Counted from the stretch's first letter, positions 705 to 30,929 are shown. The stretch: DNA of 32,000 nt from Thiotrichales bacterium 19S9-11 (GCA_021713395.1 JAKJJT010000014.1:2628-34627); one strand, 5' to 3'. The notes: generated by a model from the sequence alone, not told the origin. Numbers and translations are program-made.

Positions 705-951
705 TTTGTTATATCATAACATTTTATTACAATATTAAAATATATCATACATTCTTCATTACTAAAAGCATTTAAATAACTTATGAGATTTCTTTTTAAT
801 AAAGCACAAAAATTGAGTTAGCGTCCCTAACCAATCTCTGACTAACAAAGTACAGACCTTTTACCAACACTTCTCAAAGACCAAACACTCCGTAAATTGG
901 TTAATTTCTTGAAAGTTTTTCAAGAAAATTTTGGTTTAGTGTGAAATTTGC

Positions 952-974
952 GAAAATGGGCATTTCAAGCCCAT
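952..974 (-). terminator. weak candidate rho-independent terminator downstream of the GFA/Rpn genes
   Basis: Stem ATGGGC (956-961) / GCCCAT (969-974) with a 7-nt loop. On the minus strand the hairpin is followed by only a short U run (UUUCGCAAAUUU). Confidence 0.25.
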
Positions 975-1020
975 ATTAGGCACTTAACTTATTGATAAGC
1001 AATCGTATTAAGTCATTTGA

Positions 1021-1137
1021 GATCGTTTAATCTGGATTAATTATGAAGGTCATTTTTCATAATTAATCATGTCTAATTTTTTTGAAGTTTATTTTCTAAT
1101 CAAATATTCGAATTTTATTGATACAGATTAAACGATC
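1021..1137. repeat. MITE-like unit: 14-bp terminal inverted repeats enclosing a perfect 13-bp hairpin
   Basis: gatcgtttaatctg (1021-1034) is the exact reverse complement of cagattaaacgatc (1124-1137). Inner hairpin: gattaattatgaa (1035-1047) / ttcataattaatc (1056-1068). No ORF inside. Confidence 0.4.
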
Positions 1138-1169
1138 AAGCATTAGCGCATTGTTTTGGAATATATTTT

Positions 1170-1583
1170 CTATTTATTTGGATTTTCTTTGAATGATTGT
1201 AAGGAGCTATCAATACTAGAACAGTCCAATGCATCATCTAACCAGATATTAATCTGTGGTGCATACTCTTCTGGCTTTAATAAAGAGCCAGCATAGACGA
1301 TAAATAAATGAGGCCAGTGTTGTGGTTTTCCAAATAAAGTAGAGCCACACTCTGGGCAAAATCCATGCTTCTTAGGTGAACCGCTATCACCAATTGATTG
1401 ATACCACTTCACATTGCCACTGATAATAACAAAGTCAGCGTCACAAGCAAGGTACTCAATATGATCAGATCCTGACTTAACTTGGCAAGATCGACAGTAA
1501 CAGCGCCCAGTGCGTAAAGGTTCTTTTTCAATTTTATATTTGACACTGCCGCATAGGCATTGACCTTTTATGGGTAATTTCAT
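1170..1583 (-). CDS. GFA-family (glutathione-dependent formaldehyde-activating / CENP-V-like) zinc-binding protein
   Basis: 137 aa with the family's cysteine pattern: CLCGSVKY, CYCRSCQ, FCPECGSTLF. Confidence 0.8.
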   Translation of the reverse strand: MKLPIKGQCLCGSVKYKIEKEPLRTGRCYCRSCQVKSGSDHIEYLACDADFVIISGNVKWYQSIGDSGSPKKHGFCPECGSTLFGKPQHWPHLFIVYAGSLLKPEEYAPQINIWLDDALDCSSIDSSLQSFKENPNK

Positions 1584-2671: not shown

Positions 2672-3240
2672 AAACTGCGTTCTTTTCGTGCCCTTAGGAG
2701 CGGTAGCGACAACAGGGTGCAAAAGTATAATCAACGCAGTTTAACCTTATTAATAGTACGAAGTACTCTCCTGGCGAAGCAGCGGCCGTCGAGCCAAGCT
2801 TTGACAGAAAAATGCAACGAACGCACGCGTTTAGTACCCTTAGCGGAGCGACAGGGTGCTGCGTGAGTAGCTTCTTTTTCGTCACAGCTGACAGGCTTGA
2901 CCAAGATGGTTACACTTATAAGCTTAGTGAATAATGACGCAGTCAATTATGAGCTTTAGCGTTAAGATGGAAGCATCTTGGTCAAGCGTGGAACACGCGT
3001 AGACGGCCGCTGAGCAATCCCCAAACAAGTTTGGGGAGCGGCGAGCGAAAAGTGAAAATCTGTGCCCTTAGGAGCAACGCGACGACAGGGTGCAGATTAG
3101 AGTCTTTGAGTAGCCTAAGGGGCTTTAAATCAAGGCATACAGCGAATTTTATGAGCTTCAAAATTAAAGAGCTTAGTGTTTTTTACATCACGCACGTTTA
3201 GCCCCCCTTAGCGGAGCGACAGGGGGTCGTGTATGTAAAA
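2672..3240 (+). repeat. ORF-free GC-rich island: four related imperfect hairpins (A1-A4) plus nested long-range inverted repeats; candidate structured RNA / ssDNA element
   Basis: A1 is 2672-2742 (outer stem aaactgcgtt/aacgcagttt, inner GTGCCCT/AGGGTGC). A2 is 2821-2866, A3 is 3057-3098 (12-bp stem) and A4 is 3181-3240. Shared apex: CCCT-TAG(C)GGAGC..GCGAC-AGGG. The A2 and A4 loops are identical (tagcggagcgac). Extra inverted repeats: 2780-2790/3002-3012, 2896-2908/2974-2986, 3019-3026/3029-3036. The G:T oppositions in the stems are wobble-compatible only on the + strand. Confidence 0.6.
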
Positions 3241-3251
3241 ATAAGCGAAAA

Positions 3252-3324
3252 GTTAGGAAACTAGTTAAGACACTTGTTAGGATATTCTTGTTTTCCTAAC
3301 CAATATCCTAACTTCTATCCTAAA
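3252..3324. promoter_or_regulatory. cluster of five TTAGGA(A/T)A sites in -> -> <- <- <- arrangement (candidate protein-binding array / oriT-like region)
   Basis: gttaggaaa 3252-3260, gttaggatatt 3276-3286, tttcctaac 3292-3300, aatatcctaac 3302-3312, tatcctaaa 3316-3324. The complementary pairs interleave, so they cannot all form simple hairpins at once. Confidence 0.4.
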
Positions 3325-3339
3325 AAGAAGTGATTTAGT

Positions 3340-4596
3340 CTAATCATCTATTTTTAGGATATTGCCTACTTCTTTATTATTCGTAAAGTTGCATATAGGA
3401 GTTATAGGCGAAGTGGATTTTACTGTATCTTGATTTTTGGGAACCTTGTTTTCTTCTTTTCTTAAATCACTATATAGATCTAATGAGCTAGTATCATATG
3501 ACAATGAAGTATTATAAATGGCAATTTGCTCCAGAATTAAATTAATATGTTTACCTAATATATCTGGAGCACTCCCATAATCTTTTTTATTTTCAAAAGA
3601 GATTACATATAAATTAACTAAAGCTTTGCTGATATAGTTTAAGCAAGTTTTTAATATATTTATTCCATTTTTTGTGTCACCATCTTCAAGATAGTTAGTC
3701 AAAGAGTTTAATAAATTTAACATGATTTTTTGTTTATCTTTATTCTTTGACTTAGGTATATATTTACTTATATCACTAATCGCGTTGTAAACAACTTTCA
3801 GAGCATTACCTTGTAGAGTGAATGAGTTGCTATATACCTCGTTTTCATCTCCTAAAATTCCGGTATAAAGCTTTCTAATTAGTTTTTGCTTCTCAATATT
3901 ATCTAGATTATCTTTCGCGTTTATTTGTAAAATGAACGTTTTCAATAAATCTATCTTTGACTCATCTAAATAAGCAATATCATACTCTGCAGTTAGTGAC
4001 GTAGGTAGTTTATTAAATAAAGAAATAACGTCATTACACCACTTTTCATTAAGTTCAGTAGATTTAAGATAATCTTGTCTTAGAGTATCTGCTGTGTCTT
4101 GATTTTCAGTAGTTGGTAACAGTTTTAATAGGCTACCAAGTTGATCTGATGGTTGTTTAATCCTAGCTAAAACTGTTGAGTAAACATATTCTCCACCACC
4201 TATTGCCATTAGCTTAAATGAGTCTGTCCATGTTAAGAAGCTTTTTAATTCTAAAAGATTATCTTTTACATTTTGGTTCTTTAAAGTTTCATAAACTATA
4301 TTTAAAATATTTAAATCACACAGATTAAACTTCACACCATCAACATTATCTTTATCATAGTCTCCTTCAATCATTCTAGTTTGTTCTAATATTCCTTTTA
4401 AGTTTTTTGTAAACTTCTCTAATGCACTAAAGCATTTTTGAATGTTATCCATAGAAGGGCTTTGGATAAGATCCTTTACCTGTTTTAATAAGTCATCAGC
4501 TGATTTGCTAAACTGATTTGAACCATTAACATTCAGTTGTTCACAGTATTTATCTATGGCTTGTATTGCCAATTGTTGTTTTTCTGTTAGCATCAT
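3340..4596 (-). CDS. hypothetical protein, 418 aa, predicted mostly helical, no recognisable motif
   Basis: Long ORF with a GGGGGA Shine-Dalgarno sequence just upstream of tandem ATG ATG. Last gene of the tra-side transcription unit. Confidence 0.7.
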   Translation of the reverse strand: MMLTEKQQLAIQAIDKYCEQLNVNGSNQFSKSADDLLKQVKDLIQSPSMDNIQKCFSALEKFTKNLKGILEQTRMIEGDYDKDNVDGVKFNLCDLNILNIVYETLKNQNVKDNLLELKSFLTWTDSFKLMAIGGGEYVYSTVLARIKQPSDQLGSLLKLLPTTENQDTADTLRQDYLKSTELNEKWCNDVISLFNKLPTSLTAEYDIAYLDESKIDLLKTFILQINAKDNLDNIEKQKLIRKLYTGILGDENEVYSNSFTLQGNALKVVYNAISDISKYIPKSKNKDKQKIMLNLLNSLTNYLEDGDTKNGINILKTCLNYISKALVNLYVISFENKKDYGSAPDILGKHINLILEQIAIYNTSLSYDTSSLDLYSDLRKEENKVPKNQDTVKSTSPITPICNFTNNKEVGNILKIDD

Positions 4597-5364: not shown

Positions 5365-7308
5365 TTATATATCTACAAAACCATTGAAATTGTCATCATC
5401 TTTATTCTTTTTTAAATCATCAGTTAGACGCTCGCCTTCTTTTGTTCTTAATGTTTCATTAGCTTTATCATTTGAGCTAGCCTTAGATGATTTAATGGCT
5501 ATTTCTTTTTTATCTACTAAAGCATACAGCTTTGATGCAGTATTTATTTTAAATTGATGATGGTCTGTTTTTAAAATGTCAGTATGAATACGTGCAAAAT
5601 CATTATCTGATAGCAATGAAGAAAGCAAAATAGCTGTTCTTTTGCCTCCTGAAGAAATTTCATTCTCAGTAAGTTTAAACTCATCGTGTGTTGTCCATCT
5701 TCTCTCATGAGATGTTTTACTTGAGCCTCCAGCATTACTAATATCGTCTTCATATGCTTTATGATAAGTTTTCTTGCCACATCGCTGTTGAATTAACTTA
5801 ATTAGTGCAATATCACTAGCATTATGTACCGCTATAAAATGAGAGTTTGATAGTAACTCTTGCGCATAATTTGGATTTTGTAGTGCTTCATTAGGAGATG
5901 TGGTGAAGTTGCTAATATCCTGAAAGTTAAAAACTAGAGAGCACTTTTGTGATCTAATTGTTGCCAAATTATCCATAATAGCCGTATTCATAATGAATTT
6001 AAACTCATCAATAACAACCATACATTGGGTTGAGTTTATATGGTCTCTTTGATTAATATGTTCAAAGATTGTTGTAAATAATATTTGAGCTTGTTGACGT
6101 GATACATCATTTGTTTTTGCTTTTGAGCAACGAATATAAAGAACATCCCCACTCTCAATTATCTCTTTTAAATTTAACCCTTCTTTAGTATTAAAGATCT
6201 GATAATCATCTAGGTATGTGAAAAGGTTAAGCGTATCTTCACTATCTTGTATAAGTTCAGGAAAATGAGCTAGTGCTCTTTTAATCTCATTTGGTGTGAT
6301 ATTTTCTTCATATATTTGCTGAGATATCTTATGTAATGCCATTTCCGTTCTTTGTGCCCATATACGAGCATTACTATTTTTTAACTTCTGAAGTTCTAAG
6401 GCAGAAGTTAAAATATCTCTAAATTGGTTACTTGTTAATCCCTTAAATATAGATATCTGAGGTACTAGTACATCAAGATCAACAACATGCATCTTCTTCT
6501 TGTTTTGATGTGCAAAATCAACACAAGCATTGTACATATATTCATCAGGCTTTGGATCAAAAACAATGTTTGTAACTTTCTCTTTACTTGTTTGATATAA
6601 GTACATTCGTGTTAAAACACCTTTACCCATACCACTACCACCAATTATGGTAAAATGACCATCTAAAGATTTAAGAAAATCAGTATAGATAGGTTGTCTA
6701 TACTCATTTAAACCATGAAACAATAAGCCTTTTTTTATGAACTTTATTACGTCATAATCAATCGTTTCTCTTTTCTTGCCATCTGGATTATAAATTACCC
6801 TGCTTGTATTATTCATTTGATAAGATGTTGAAATTCTGTTTAAACGACTCATCACTACTCTGTCAATAAAAGGCTTTATAACAGGCAGTCTATGAAACTT
6901 AACTTGTATCAATATATAAATAATTAAGGTTTCAGCAAATAATAATATATATTCATTAAGATACAGATCATAAGTAGAAAAATCATTTTCATATTCAGTT
7001 GCATAAAATAATAAACTATTAAATACCAACCAATAGATAAACAAACCTAAAATAAGGTATCTACAGACTGAAGCAGTATTAATTATTTGTCTATGAATAA
7101 AAGGTAATGGTCTAGTCTCAGCATCTGGTGAAAATTCTTTTAACTGATTTGTAAAGGATATTATGAGTATGGCAAACAGGCTTACCAATATCAGCAACCC
7201 TGAATCCATCATATTTAATACTAATGAGCTAAAAAGCTTTATATTTAGAAACCAATTCAAGCCATCAATTGTAAATATATATAATTGATTTAATAGGTTT
7301 TCATACAT
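5365..7308 (-). CDS. traD: type IV coupling protein TraD
   Basis: 647 aa. N-terminal TM segments, P-loop IIGGSGMGKGVLT, Walker B CMVVIDEFKF, acidic C-terminal tail. Sits after traT as in F. Confidence 0.9.
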   Translation of the reverse strand: MYENLLNQLYIFTIDGLNWFLNIKLFSSLVLNMMDSGLLILVSLFAILIISFTNQLKEFSPDAETRPLPFIHRQIINTASVCRYLILGLFIYWLVFNSLLFYATEYENDFSTYDLYLNEYILLFAETLIIYILIQVKFHRLPVIKPFIDRVVMSRLNRISTSYQMNNTSRVIYNPDGKKRETIDYDVIKFIKKGLLFHGLNEYRQPIYTDFLKSLDGHFTIIGGSGMGKGVLTRMYLYQTSKEKVTNIVFDPKPDEYMYNACVDFAHQNKKKMHVVDLDVLVPQISIFKGLTSNQFRDILTSALELQKLKNSNARIWAQRTEMALHKISQQIYEENITPNEIKRALAHFPELIQDSEDTLNLFTYLDDYQIFNTKEGLNLKEIIESGDVLYIRCSKAKTNDVSRQQAQILFTTIFEHINQRDHINSTQCMVVIDEFKFIMNTAIMDNLATIRSQKCSLVFNFQDISNFTTSPNEALQNPNYAQELLSNSHFIAVHNASDIALIKLIQQRCGKKTYHKAYEDDISNAGGSSKTSHERRWTTHDEFKLTENEISSGGKRTAILLSSLLSDNDFARIHTDILKTDHHQFKINTASKLYALVDKKEIAIKSSKASSNDKANETLRTKEGERLTDDLKKNKDDDNFNGFVDI

Positions 7309-25906: not shown

Positions 25907-26658
25907 GCTACTACTCCTACCATTTGAACTTTCCTTTTATCATGCCCTGTAAATCTTAAGAATAAACCCGATTCTAGAATCCTTGACATTAACCTCTGCC
26001 CAATGAACTTCTCCAGTTCTTTCCTATCTAGATTAGAAATAATAATTGTTGGCAACATTGCTTCATATCTTTCGTTAATAACGTCAAACAGCTGCAAGTG
26101 ATCAGAACTTTTTCCTCTTATTAGGTCAATTTCATCAATAACTAACAAATCATAATCTGCTAATTCATTTTTAATTTGTTGTTCTGTTTTTTTACTAGCA
26201 GAAGTATATGTCTCATTAATGCTACTAATTAGATTATAAGCTGTTAGTATTTTGGCTTTTAATTTATGTTTTATAATAACTTCTCTAACGATACTAGAAG
26301 CAAGATATGTTTTACCACTACCTGTTGTCCCTATCATTACTATGCTTGAGCCTAGTTCTTTCATTTGTTGAAATGCACTAGAGAACTGAACAGCAGCTTT
26401 TAAATTGATAGTGTCTTCTTTATTCTGCGGCTTAAAGTTTTCAAAACTTGCTGATCTAAACCTCTTCTTTATGCCAGAGCGTGATAATAATCTTGAAACT
26501 TGGTATGCATTTTCTCTAGCATGCTTACTCTCAAGATCGCATTCAGAACAAGAATATAAGTATCCTATTTTATGCTTTTCGCAGTACTGCTTTTTGGAGT
26601 CTAATTTTGATTGTATCCTTTCAATCTGTTTCGAAATATTTTGAATATTAGTCATCAT
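25903..26658 (-). CDS. DnaC/IstB-like AAA+ helicase loader
   Basis: Walker A GTTGSGKTYLA and Walker B LLVIDEID. 251 aa, downstream of a replisome-organizer gene. Confidence 0.85.
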   Translation of the reverse strand: MMTNIQNISKQIERIQSKLDSKKQYCEKHKIGYLYSCSECDLESKHARENAYQVSRLLSRSGIKKRFRSASFENFKPQNKEDTINLKAAVQFSSAFQQMKELGSSIVMIGTTGSGKTYLASSIVREVIIKHKLKAKILTAYNLISSINETYTSASKKTEQQIKNELADYDLLVIDEIDLIRGKSSDHLQLFDVINERYEAMLPTIIISNLDRKELEKFIGQRLMSRILESGLFLRFTGHDKRKVQMVGVVA

Positions 26659-27511
26659 AACTCCTTCCTTGAGTATTAAATATTTCTCCCATTACTGCTT
26701 CATTGTGTTTTAAAAGCTCATCATCTGAATAACTCCATGCATCATCAAAAACTTTATTAACTGATGAGTTATATTTATTTTCCTGCTTTCCATGGTTCTT
26801 AATTGGGTAAACTGATTTCCAAGAATTAATAATTGAGTTTTCGAGCATCTGCTTTTGTTCATTCAATGGATGTTTGTTTAGCTCATTCACTATTAAGTTA
26901 ATTACTCTATCCGTATTGTTTGCTTTAAGTTGAGTTCTTACATTTAAAAATTCTTCAAAAAGTTTATGTAGTGATAAATCAATCAAATCAAAAATAGTTT
27001 TTTCTTTTTGTATATTTTTTCTTTTTTCTATCTCTTTACTCTTATCTATATCTATCTCTTTCTCTGGCGTTGCATTTTTGTTGCATTGGCGTTGCATCAG
27101 CGTTGCATCAGCGTTGCATTGCAACGCTTCTGGCTGACATTTGTTCAATTTCTTTGCTCTAAGGTTGCGTGCTCGTATTGTACTTTGTGTTTCACTACCA
27201 ATTAAATCTATTACATTAGTTACTAAATATTTGTTAGACTCCACCTCATCAAGAAGACCTGTACGTAGCATATATTCTAGTGTAACTTCAACATTATCAT
27301 CATCTTCATCAAGGATAAGAGAAAGTTCACTTGAAAAATCTTTTTCTAATCCTTCAAAATAAATAAAACCTTGATTTTTTATCGATAAAAGCATTATTTT
27401 TTGAAAAATAATTGTATAAGTATCCCCACCAGCAATTTTACGCAATTTTTTAATCTTTGGCTCAGAAAAAAAACCTTCCTTAAGTTTTAGCCAAAAGTAT
27501 CGTTTATTCAT
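26648..27511 (-). CDS. phage-type replisome organizer / replication initiator (DnaD-like)
   Basis: N-terminus YFWLKLKEGFFSEPKIKKLRKIAGGDTYTIIFQKIMLLS is the typical replisome-organizer N-domain pattern. An acidic linker contains the iterons. Confidence 0.8.
   Translation of the reverse strand: MNKRYFWLKLKEGFFSEPKIKKLRKIAGGDTYTIIFQKIMLLSIKNQGFIYFEGLEKDFSSELSLILDEDDDNVEVTLEYMLRTGLLDEVESNKYLVTNVIDLIGSETQSTIRARNLRAKKLNKCQPEALQCNADATLMQRQCNKNATPEKEIDIDKSKEIEKRKNIQKEKTIFDLIDLSLHKLFEEFLNVRTQLKANNTDRVINLIVNELNKHPLNEQKQMLENSIINSWKSVYPIKNHGKQENKYNSSVNKVFDDAWSYSDDELLKHNEAVMGEIFNTQGRSYDD
27067..27127. promoter_or_regulatory. iteron array (candidate replication origin) inside the initiator gene
   Basis: GCGTTGCAT at 27067, (GTTGCAT) at 27078-27086, then 27089, 27100 and 27111, giving an exact 11-bp period. 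An inverted copy TGCAACGC at 27120-27127 forms a palindrome. An AT-rich tract lies immediately adjacent (about 26990-27066). Confidence 0.7.
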
Positions 27512-30751: not shown

Positions 30752-30786
30752 GTCCTTACCTTTAAAAAATTTATACAACTATGTTA

Positions 30787-30810
30787 AAAGTACCGTCAAA
30801 AGTACCGTCA
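30787..30810. repeat. exact 12-bp tandem repeat (AAAGTACCGTCA x2) between int and the att core; candidate arm-type Int site or int operator
   Basis: Copies at 30787-30798 and 30799-30810 are identical. Confidence 0.45.
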
Positions 30811-30929
30811 AATATTCAATGTTGTAATCATAGAGAAAATGATTAAGAAATACAATAAACCTTTTAGATTAAGGATCTTGTCATTTTTTTAAAGCTGAGA
30901 AAGATGGTTAAACTTCACTAGACCAATAC

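Follow-up and report, generated by a model that had tools for sequence, protein, structure and literature searches.

The question raised by this locus is what an integrative conjugative element (ICE) gains from some 570 nt of intricately folded, gene-free DNA. The locus lies in a stretch of 32,000 nucleotides from Thiotrichales bacterium 19S9-11 (GCA_021713395.1 JAKJJT010000014.1:2628-34627; the window, with positions counted from its first letter) and occupies positions 2672-3240 (the island). The island as a whole has 46% GC and its surroundings ∼32%; at 2801-3200 the GC content is 0.46, against ∼0.27-0.39 over the remaining window, and only short open reading frames (ORFs) of 40-71 aa overlap it, bearing out a first-pass annotation that had described the segment as GC-rich and ORF-free. 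The last of the explanations listed there, hairpins of the origin-of-transfer (oriT) or single-strand initiation (ssi) type belonging to a conjugative element, is the one favored here: the island is probably the cis-acting oriT region of a MobB/MobC mobilization module, acting as folded single-stranded DNA (ssDNA) of which the + strand is transferred. The accompanying term "leading region" is kept only in part, since the hairpins do belong to a conjugative element, yet are read here as the transfer origin itself and not as a promoter upstream of leading genes.

The window corresponds to an ICE with a complete F-type type IV secretion system encoded on the - strand (TraA, L, E, K, B, V, C, U, TrbC, TraN, F, H, G and T). 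The last genes of the tra operon encode a coupling protein followed by a MobC-family protein:

5365-7308, - strand: mobB-like gene for a type IV coupling protein (T4CP) of 647 aa
4665-5354, - strand: mobC, encoding a MOB_C (PD-(D/E)XK, "replication-relaxation") relaxase of 229 aa (NF041423, E 1e-39)

The 229-aa protein gives tblastn matches to annotated mobC genes among 1131 plasmids, and its residues D134, E147, E149 and K153 are invariant across the family alignment. Judged from its sequence, it is a CloDF13-type MOB_C relaxase and the predicted cognate protein of the island. A protein identical to it has been recorded from "Thiotrichales bacterium 19S9-12".

Relatives of this MobC (55-63% identity) are encoded on small plasmids from marine metagenomes, where a coupling-protein gene and mobC are followed by a gene-free stretch. 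In every plasmid this stretch opens with a clear homologue of the island, located on the same strand as mobBC and beginning 20-160 nt past mobC with no terminator between. At least five small marine plasmids, all distinct and together of three replicon types, carry the island. Replication modules of the marine mobBC plasmids vary (Rep3, RepL or Replicase/PriCT), and blastn comparison of the plasmids with the whole window leaves mobB, mobC and the island as the sole conserved parts. The island is thus adjacent to, and co-inherited with, cognate MOB_C relaxase and T4CP genes. The element must have an oriT that suits its relaxase, and because no other non-coding DNA follows mobBC from replicon to replicon, elimination points to the island as this oriT. 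The orientation of the island relative to mobBC is reversed only in the window, where a 418-aa orphan ORF lies between the island and mobC.

A more distant clade, with MobC of ∼30% identity, has a related island of ∼500 nt 3' of mobC. It includes Francisella frigiditurris plasmid pFCD_1, typed as MOBC in PLSDB, and four further Francisella-type loci carry a related island. Francisella-type islands located 3' of mobC are the following:

L193, ∼760-1300, minus strand
L195, 6679-7230
L198, 6161-6500
L199, 6697-7200
L200, 5100-5620

Francisella-type islands share their building blocks with the island of the window, namely the hairpin CCCTTAGCGTAGCGACAGGG, the mini-hairpin GTACGAAGTAC and a covarying long-range CCCGTC/GACGGG stem. 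Each of the listed islands has the covarying CCCGTC/GACGGG clamp and GTACGAAGTAC, and most also have a hairpin of the A type described below. Each also ends in a perfect palindrome (e.g. TTTCAAAGCATGCTTTGAAA) with compensatory changes between loci.

The consensus fold of the island was derived with RNAalifold from an alignment of the five full-length islands. It comprises 100 pairs in 13 helices, and the window sequence contributes the following features:

2672-2742, + strand: hairpin A1 (helix 2 of the consensus fold, 98% of cells paired; A-hairpin model R1, 35 bits)
2672-2681/2733-2742, + strand: outer stem of A1, perfect over 10 bp, enclosing GTGCCCT...AGGGTGC
2688-2694/2715-2721, + strand: inner stem of A1, GTGCCCT/AGGGTGC, with tandem T·G/G·T pairs and the loop TAGGAGCGGTAGCGACAAC
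2755-2767, + strand: mini-hairpin AGTAC-GAA-GTACT, a GNA triloop with a C:G closing pair (helix 3)
2774-2780, + strand: heptamer GCGAAGC, the consensus DNA mini-hairpin ((G/A)GCGAAGC in 5/5 full-length homologues)
2780-2790, + strand: 5' arm of the outer clamp helix (helix 5), CAGCGGCCGTC, pairing with 3002-3012
2811-2885, + strand: A2-bearing branch (helices 7-9, 8 pairs changed on both sides)
∼2814-2823/2873-2882, + strand: A-run/T-run stem closing the A2 branch, covarying
2821-2866, + strand: hairpin A2, CCCT-TAGCGGAGCGAC-AGGG, inside branch 2811-2885
2858-2871, + strand: small covarying hairpin GCTGC-GTGA-GTAGC, inside branch 2811-2885
2889-2993, + strand: central long hairpin (helix 10), the proposed oriT core (96.7% paired, 8 invariant and 8 compensatory pairs)
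3002-3012, + strand: 3' arm of the outer clamp helix, GACGGCCGCTG, pairing with 2780-2790
3019-3036, + strand: hairpin CCCCAAAC/GTTTGGGG of 8 bp (helix 11), covarying
3037-3050, + strand: conserved single-stranded AGCGGCGAGCGAAA, directly after the preceding hairpin
3057-3098, + strand: hairpin A3, GTGCCCT...AGGGTGC, with the long loop TAGGAGCAACGCGACGAC (helix 12)
3181-3240, + strand: hairpin A4, CCCCCCT-TAGCGGAGCGAC-AGGGGG, with the outer stem ACATCACGCACG/CGTGTATGT

Read 5' to 3', the island therefore consists of A1, the mini-hairpin and GCGAAGC, a clamp around the A2 branch and the central hairpin, a small hairpin with AGCGGCGAGCGAAA, A3, a variable segment and A4. The four hairpins and nested repeats reported in the first-pass annotation were each recovered at their positions, and several could be extended. 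The clamp helix is a perfect 11-bp pair in the window and keeps its core CCGTC/GACGG among homologues, with compensatory changes. The 13-bp inverted repeat noted earlier reaches 23 nt with 87% complementarity (2892-2914/2968-2990) as part of the central hairpin, the base of which is invariant (GCTTGACC at 2895-2902 and GGTCAAGCGT at 2980-2989), the upper stem covarying. The mini-hairpin at 2755-2767 also covaries (GTAC/GTAC versus GTGC/GCAC), and Francisella-type islands have a mini-hairpin as well. An exact 20-mer, CCCTTAGCGGAGCGACAGGG, is common to A2 (2837) and A4 (3205), with no match in 100 shuffles of the window, and GTGCCCTTAGGAGC and GCGAC(A/G)ACAGGGTGCA are common to A1 and A3 at a spacing of 374 bp. 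The plasmid homologues L133 and L125 have the same four-hairpin layout, so that the old tandem duplication suspected from such similarities is ancestral to the clade and not specific to the window.

Covariation across homologues is strong. Both sides have changed in 29 of the 100 consensus pairs, the compensatory pattern expected of a maintained fold, and 90.7% of the alignment cells form standard pairs, as opposed to 36-50% when the partners are slid by 1-3 columns; none of 500 column shuffles attained the observed values on any measure. The mismatches tolerated in the helices are, moreover, strand specific. The earlier remark that stem irregularities on the + strand are G:T holds and extends to the homologues, with 41 G·T cells against 6 A·C cells over the five sequences. 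This imbalance indicates that one strand is under selection, which excludes a purely double-stranded site as well as a cruciform. Folding energies agree in direction, with -222 kcal/mol for the + strand (z -6.5) and -183 for the - strand (z -4.8) using RNA parameters, and -113.9 (z -6.1) and -96 (z -5.7), respectively, using DNA parameters, all relative to shuffles. The expectation of a structured, strand-specific single-strand element is therefore upheld. G·T bias, greater stability of the + strand with DNA parameters and covariation together represent the orientation-specific intrastrand folding that characterizes single-strand origins (sso) and ssi sites.

As for the nature of the folded strand, ten islands together hold 24 copies of the heptamer GCGNAGC on the + strand and 4 on the - strand, where 0.9 are expected (∼25-fold enrichment on the + strand). 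In DNA, d(GCGNAGC) gives the mini-hairpin described as "extraordinarily stable", which occurs at the complementary-strand origin of phage G4 and close to RSF1010 ssiA, and the heptamer is much weaker as RNA and poorly bound by SSB, the protein that binds single-stranded DNA (PMC13037366). The loop chemistry thus points to DNA over RNA.

The sequence of the central hairpin links the island to MOB_C origins. Upstream of the coupling-protein gene of the Klebsiella plasmid pKSB2_6C_3 there is a GCTTGACC/GGTCAAGCGT repeat with CCGTC/GACGG flanks, next to GGAGCGCGAGCGAC, and the same region holds a GGAGCG-N-AGCGAC motif. A CloDF13-like plasmid shows this nesting as well, with diverged arms: GGCCCCCGTCAG/CTGACGGGGGCC encloses an inner repeat, one arm of which is GGGTG-GTCAGGCGT. 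The motif GGTCA(A/G)GCGT is invariant in 8/8 aligned sequences, both of these plasmids included. Nunez and de la Cruz (2001, as quoted in PMC5935869) located the nic of CloDF13 at GGGTG/GTCGGG, and the nested inverted repeat of the CloDF13-like plasmid spans the nic sequence GGGTG/GTC in its quoted form. Alignment of the island core with GGGTG^GTCAGGCGT of this plasmid yields a candidate nic on the + strand:

2980-2981, + strand: predicted nic, G^GTCAAGCGT (G2980^G2981), placed by alignment to GGGTG^GTCAGGCGT

The sequences compared are CTTG^GTCAAGCGT in the window, CCGGG^GTCAAGCGT in pKSB2_6C_3 and GGGTG^GTCAGGCGT in the CloDF13-like plasmid, of which the 3' half alone is common with the window. 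With the predicted polarity the mob genes would enter the recipient last in both marine and enterobacterial plasmids, despite the location of the oriT on opposite sides of the genes.

MOB_C oriTs such as those of CloDF13 and pAD1 resemble the island in several respects. A T4CP gene and a ∼230-aa MobC-family PD-(D/E)XK relaxase gene adjoin; nested inverted repeats, a CCGTC/GACGG clamp and TAGCG-N-AGCGAC-like motifs are found; and GGTCA(A/G)GCGT aligns where the quoted CloDF13 nic sequence falls in the CloDF13-like plasmid. In MOB_C systems the nic is contained in large inverted repeats and the binding repeats stand apart from it; TraX of pAD1 binds five repeats located 70-120 bp from nic (PMC12857230). 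The island likewise has repeated presumed binding sites away from its candidate nic, as in pAD1 oriT2, and by this analogy the four A hairpins are plausible equivalents of the TraX repeats. The differences are mainly of size and placement. At ∼570 nt the island is 4-5 times larger than the enterobacterial MOB_C oriT (∼130 nt), and it has four hairpin copies of the motif plus several additional covarying helices. It is located 3' of mobC instead of 5' of mobB, the window copy being inverted and separated by the orphan ORF, and its hosts are Thiotrichales and marine plasmids. The MOB_C oriT is a known kind of element, of which the island would represent a much enlarged, multi-hairpin and strongly covarying form.

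Several observations weigh against the oriT assignment or its details. The nic placement corresponds to an alignment of 10-12 nt between plasmids whose MobC proteins are only ∼28-30% identical, and it was made with the CloDF13-like plasmid, CloDF13 itself being represented by a quoted 11-mer. The sample of homologues comprises five full-length and ∼7 partial or distant islands. Francisella-type islands have no GGTCAAGCG, and the GGTCA(A/G)GCGT motif is missing from them and from a short variant, L131. In this variant (L131 1374-1700, identical to L132, compared with L133 3113-3983), A1 and A3 are fused within AGGGTGCAAA, 328 nt are deleted and the whole central hairpin is gone; it was assembled from two datasets. 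Given the loss of the central hairpin in L131/L132 and the absence of GGTCAAGCG in Francisella-type islands, the nic may be elsewhere, with AGGGTG^C of the A hairpins as one candidate and a clade-dependent position as another. The short variant is either a defective derivative or a hint that the A hairpins are themselves nic sites. Its A1-to-A3 deletion fits initiation at one nic and termination at another, and is explained equally well by simple recombination between repeats. Also, tandem U·G/G·U pairs are conserved, a feature more usual in RNA than in DNA, and the plasmid islands are co-directional with mobBC, with the first strong terminator (in L122) ∼220 nt beyond the island, so that they are probably transcribed as a 3' extension of mobBC. 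On the other side, the island of the window is intact although inverted relative to mobBC and has no upstream promoter, which fits an autonomous cis-acting site; an RNA from a 3' untranslated region (3'-UTR) would not tolerate the inversion.

With the oriT assignment in mind, the following sequence of events can be envisaged. MobC, together with MobB, would bind the A-hairpin motifs, the four hairpins (CCCT-TAGCG-N-AGCGAC-AGGG) serving as repeated MobC sites comparable to the TraX repeats of pAD1. MobC may then cut the + strand halfway along the central hairpin's stem, at G2980^G2981, and the + strand would be transferred 5' to 3' and refold in the recipient as T-strand (the transferred strand), a fold which covariation shows to be selected. 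Re-sealing could be helped by the 5' arm of the central hairpin, which stays uncut and would align both strand ends as a nicked duplex, and the GCGNAGC mini-hairpins might exclude SSB and perhaps help to prime the complementary strand. A re-sealing splint is attractive because the 5' end reported for CloDF13 is free and not part of a covalent adduct (PMC6736028). In its most explicit form, the ∼570-nt fold would be an ssDNA device that offsets the lack of a stable covalent DNA adduct in MOB_C relaxases: the nick falls within a stem, the 5' arm acts as a splint that re-juxtaposes the T-strand ends for host ligase, and the mini-hairpins mark sites of relaxase re-binding and priming. This complete scheme is speculative and, taken as a whole, rather doubtful. 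If true, it would constitute a new, structure-driven way of ending conjugative transfer.

MOB_C is the least understood relaxase family, its members being restriction-enzyme-like with a reported free 5' end, and how these enzymes recruit, transfer and re-seal the DNA strand is an open question (PMC12857230, PMC6736028). The island is unusually informative in this respect, given that a one-strand fold of ∼100 pairs with a candidate nic inside a stem provides a concrete, mutable model of what T-strand folding contributes. Its identification also adds a previously unannotated candidate oriT to Thiotrichales/Francisella and marine mobilizable plasmids and to an F-type ICE, and its signature of sequence and structure could be used to find further members. 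No description of such an island was found in a limited literature search, and no similar sequence occurs in two annotated DNA collections.

Among the alternatives, two retain a modest share of probability. One is that the island acts as a large structured + strand RNA, e.g. a product of the mobBC 3'-UTR, which cooperates with MobC/MobB or regulates mobilization. Covariation fits RNA equally well, and both the tandem U·G/G·U pairs kept in the A stems and the position of all plasmid islands 20-160 nt after a co-directional mobC, followed later by the terminator seen in L122, would be natural features of such a transcript. There is also a precedent in SGI1, whose mobilization requires a small RNA, sgm-sRNA, encoded between a relaxase-like gene and oriT (PMC9299015). 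Like the locus of sgm-sRNA, the island is non-coding and associated with an atypical relaxase gene and an oriT; however, for sgm-sRNA an RNA with promoters and processing has been demonstrated, whereas no sigma-70 promoter or terminator frames the island in the window, where it is inverted relative to mobBC, and its loops are DNA-like. These recurrent loops are the C:G-closed GNA triloops of GCGNAGC, weak as RNA, no conserved GNRA or UNCG tetraloops were seen, and the invariant helix base matches DNA oriT sequences. Rfam gave no family for the whole window at gathering thresholds and, with E up to 10, only chance-level miRNA/sRNA matches outside the island. An RNA function is regarded as unlikely. 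An internal "terminator" at 2858-2881 was considered and rejected, since its T-run is the 3' arm of the stem that covaries with the A-run.

The other alternative is a dedicated sso or ssi, in which SSB-resistant hairpins of the T-strand recruit primase, PriA or RNA polymerase to prime the complementary strand, the true nic being elsewhere. The strictly strand-specific fold is what such sites display: the island shares orientation-specific folded ssDNA with ssoA/ssoU, ICEBs1 sso1, G4- and phiX-type ssi and Frpo, GCGNAGC-type mini-hairpins (∼25-fold enriched) with the G4 origin and RSF1010 ssiA, and a -35-like hexamer within a stem with these systems in general. The loops of the A hairpins, TAGCG(T/G/A), resemble the CS-6 loop motif of ssoA. 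Location is also comparable, as in ICEBs1 sso1 lies directly 3' of the relaxase gene nicK, where it primes the complementary strand in an orientation-specific manner (PMC4595007).

The promoter-like component, however, is incomplete. TTGACC is invariant in the stem of helix 10, yet no conserved -10 follows at 15-18 nt, for which reason helix 10 was discarded as a Frpo-like ssDNA promoter. Outside the family, the hairpin model scores best in a Klebsiella plasmid, on the displaced strand of the ColE1 ssiA region, with a match that is not significant (12 bits, E 0.56); this region (L194), the sole ssi sequence compared, shows no significant similarity to the island, and a reading as a PriA-type primosome assembly site (pas), suggested by short identities to it, was likewise set aside. 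In L194 the segment 8789-8830 (- strand), in the ColE1-type ssiA/n'-pas region, contains GGAGCGTAGCGACCGAGTGAGCGAGG, 13 nt of which are exactly those of the A3 loop of L133. Compared with the sso/ssi systems the island is also much larger, multi-branched and provided with an oriT-like core, GGTCAAGCGT, that aligns with MOB_C oriT regions. Finally, a nic located outside the island would leave an sso on the non-transferred strand of the window, given the inversion there. A priming site in place of an oriT is thus improbable; priming may instead coexist with the oriT function.

The remaining two proposals have hardly any probability left. That the island is an RNA titrating CsrA/RsmA through GGA-loop hairpins was prompted by GGA in and near the A2 and A4 loops of the window, but the loop GGA is peculiar to the window (GTA, GCA, GAA, AAA or ATA in homologues), no csrA paralogue is detectable in the window, no Rfam match to CsrB/RsmY/RsmZ was obtained and no promoter or terminator is present. 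That it is a repetitive extragenic palindrome (REP/BIME-like) cluster with no element-specific role would agree with its short imperfect palindromes in one orientation, but its long-range helices covary, it always stands beside mobBC in elements of differing hosts and replicons, and a covariance model of the A hairpin, which matches every island copy at 28-50 bits, found nothing outside the islands in the ∼133 kb searched, made up of the 32-kb window and ∼100 kb of related loci.

The distribution of the island was also explored by broader searches. Blastn with the island gave no match in plasmid or phage collections, and a viral scan with the 20-mer gave none either. The pattern used to scan the genome collection was too degenerate, returning at least 119 matches (L001-L119) that are single chance occurrences. 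Metagenome and viral scans with a three-block pattern returned 55 stretches. Two of these are real: L154 adds a further, partial homologue, and L168 is identical with the L125 type. The others were rejected as GC-rich chance matches.

Other features of the window deserve mention. For the orphan ORF between mobC and the inverted island (3340-4596, - strand, 418 aa), a search of 5.8 billion proteins gave no homologue at E≤0.001; Pfam and NCBIfam matches are likewise absent, as is any exact match in an assembly index. Should the nick lie in the island and the + strand be the T-strand, this ORF would be the first gene to enter the recipient, with the T-strand as its template. Across its stop codon, at 3250-3365, there is a cluster of TTAGGA(T/A)A(T) sequences in both orientations, with exact TTAGGATAT at 3277, 3303 and 3354, a near copy at 3315, several alternative inverted repeats and no exact copy elsewhere in the window; its role could be that of a bidirectional terminator or of an array bound by protein. 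On its other side the island adjoins an Rpn/YhgA-like gene (Transposase_31, recombination-promoting nuclease; 1632-2579, - strand), which might bear on the inverted orientation of the island against mobBC, seen in the window element only.

The ICE also encodes a P4-type integrase, an AlpA-like regulator and a replisome-organizer/DnaC-like pair. Inside the replisome-organizer-like gene (26648-27511) an 11-nt tandem repeat (GCGTTGCATCA GCGTTGCATCA...) occurs at 27089-27108, possibly an iteron-type origin located within a gene, by analogy with lambdoid phages. The window yielded neither a tRNA or tmRNA gene nor a pair of att-like direct repeats. Directly upstream of the start of the integrase gene, the 15-mer AAAAGTACCGTCAAA is present in two overlapping copies starting at 30786 and 30798 (12 nt apart; 30786-30812), possibly a binding site for integrase or Xis, or an att-related sequence.

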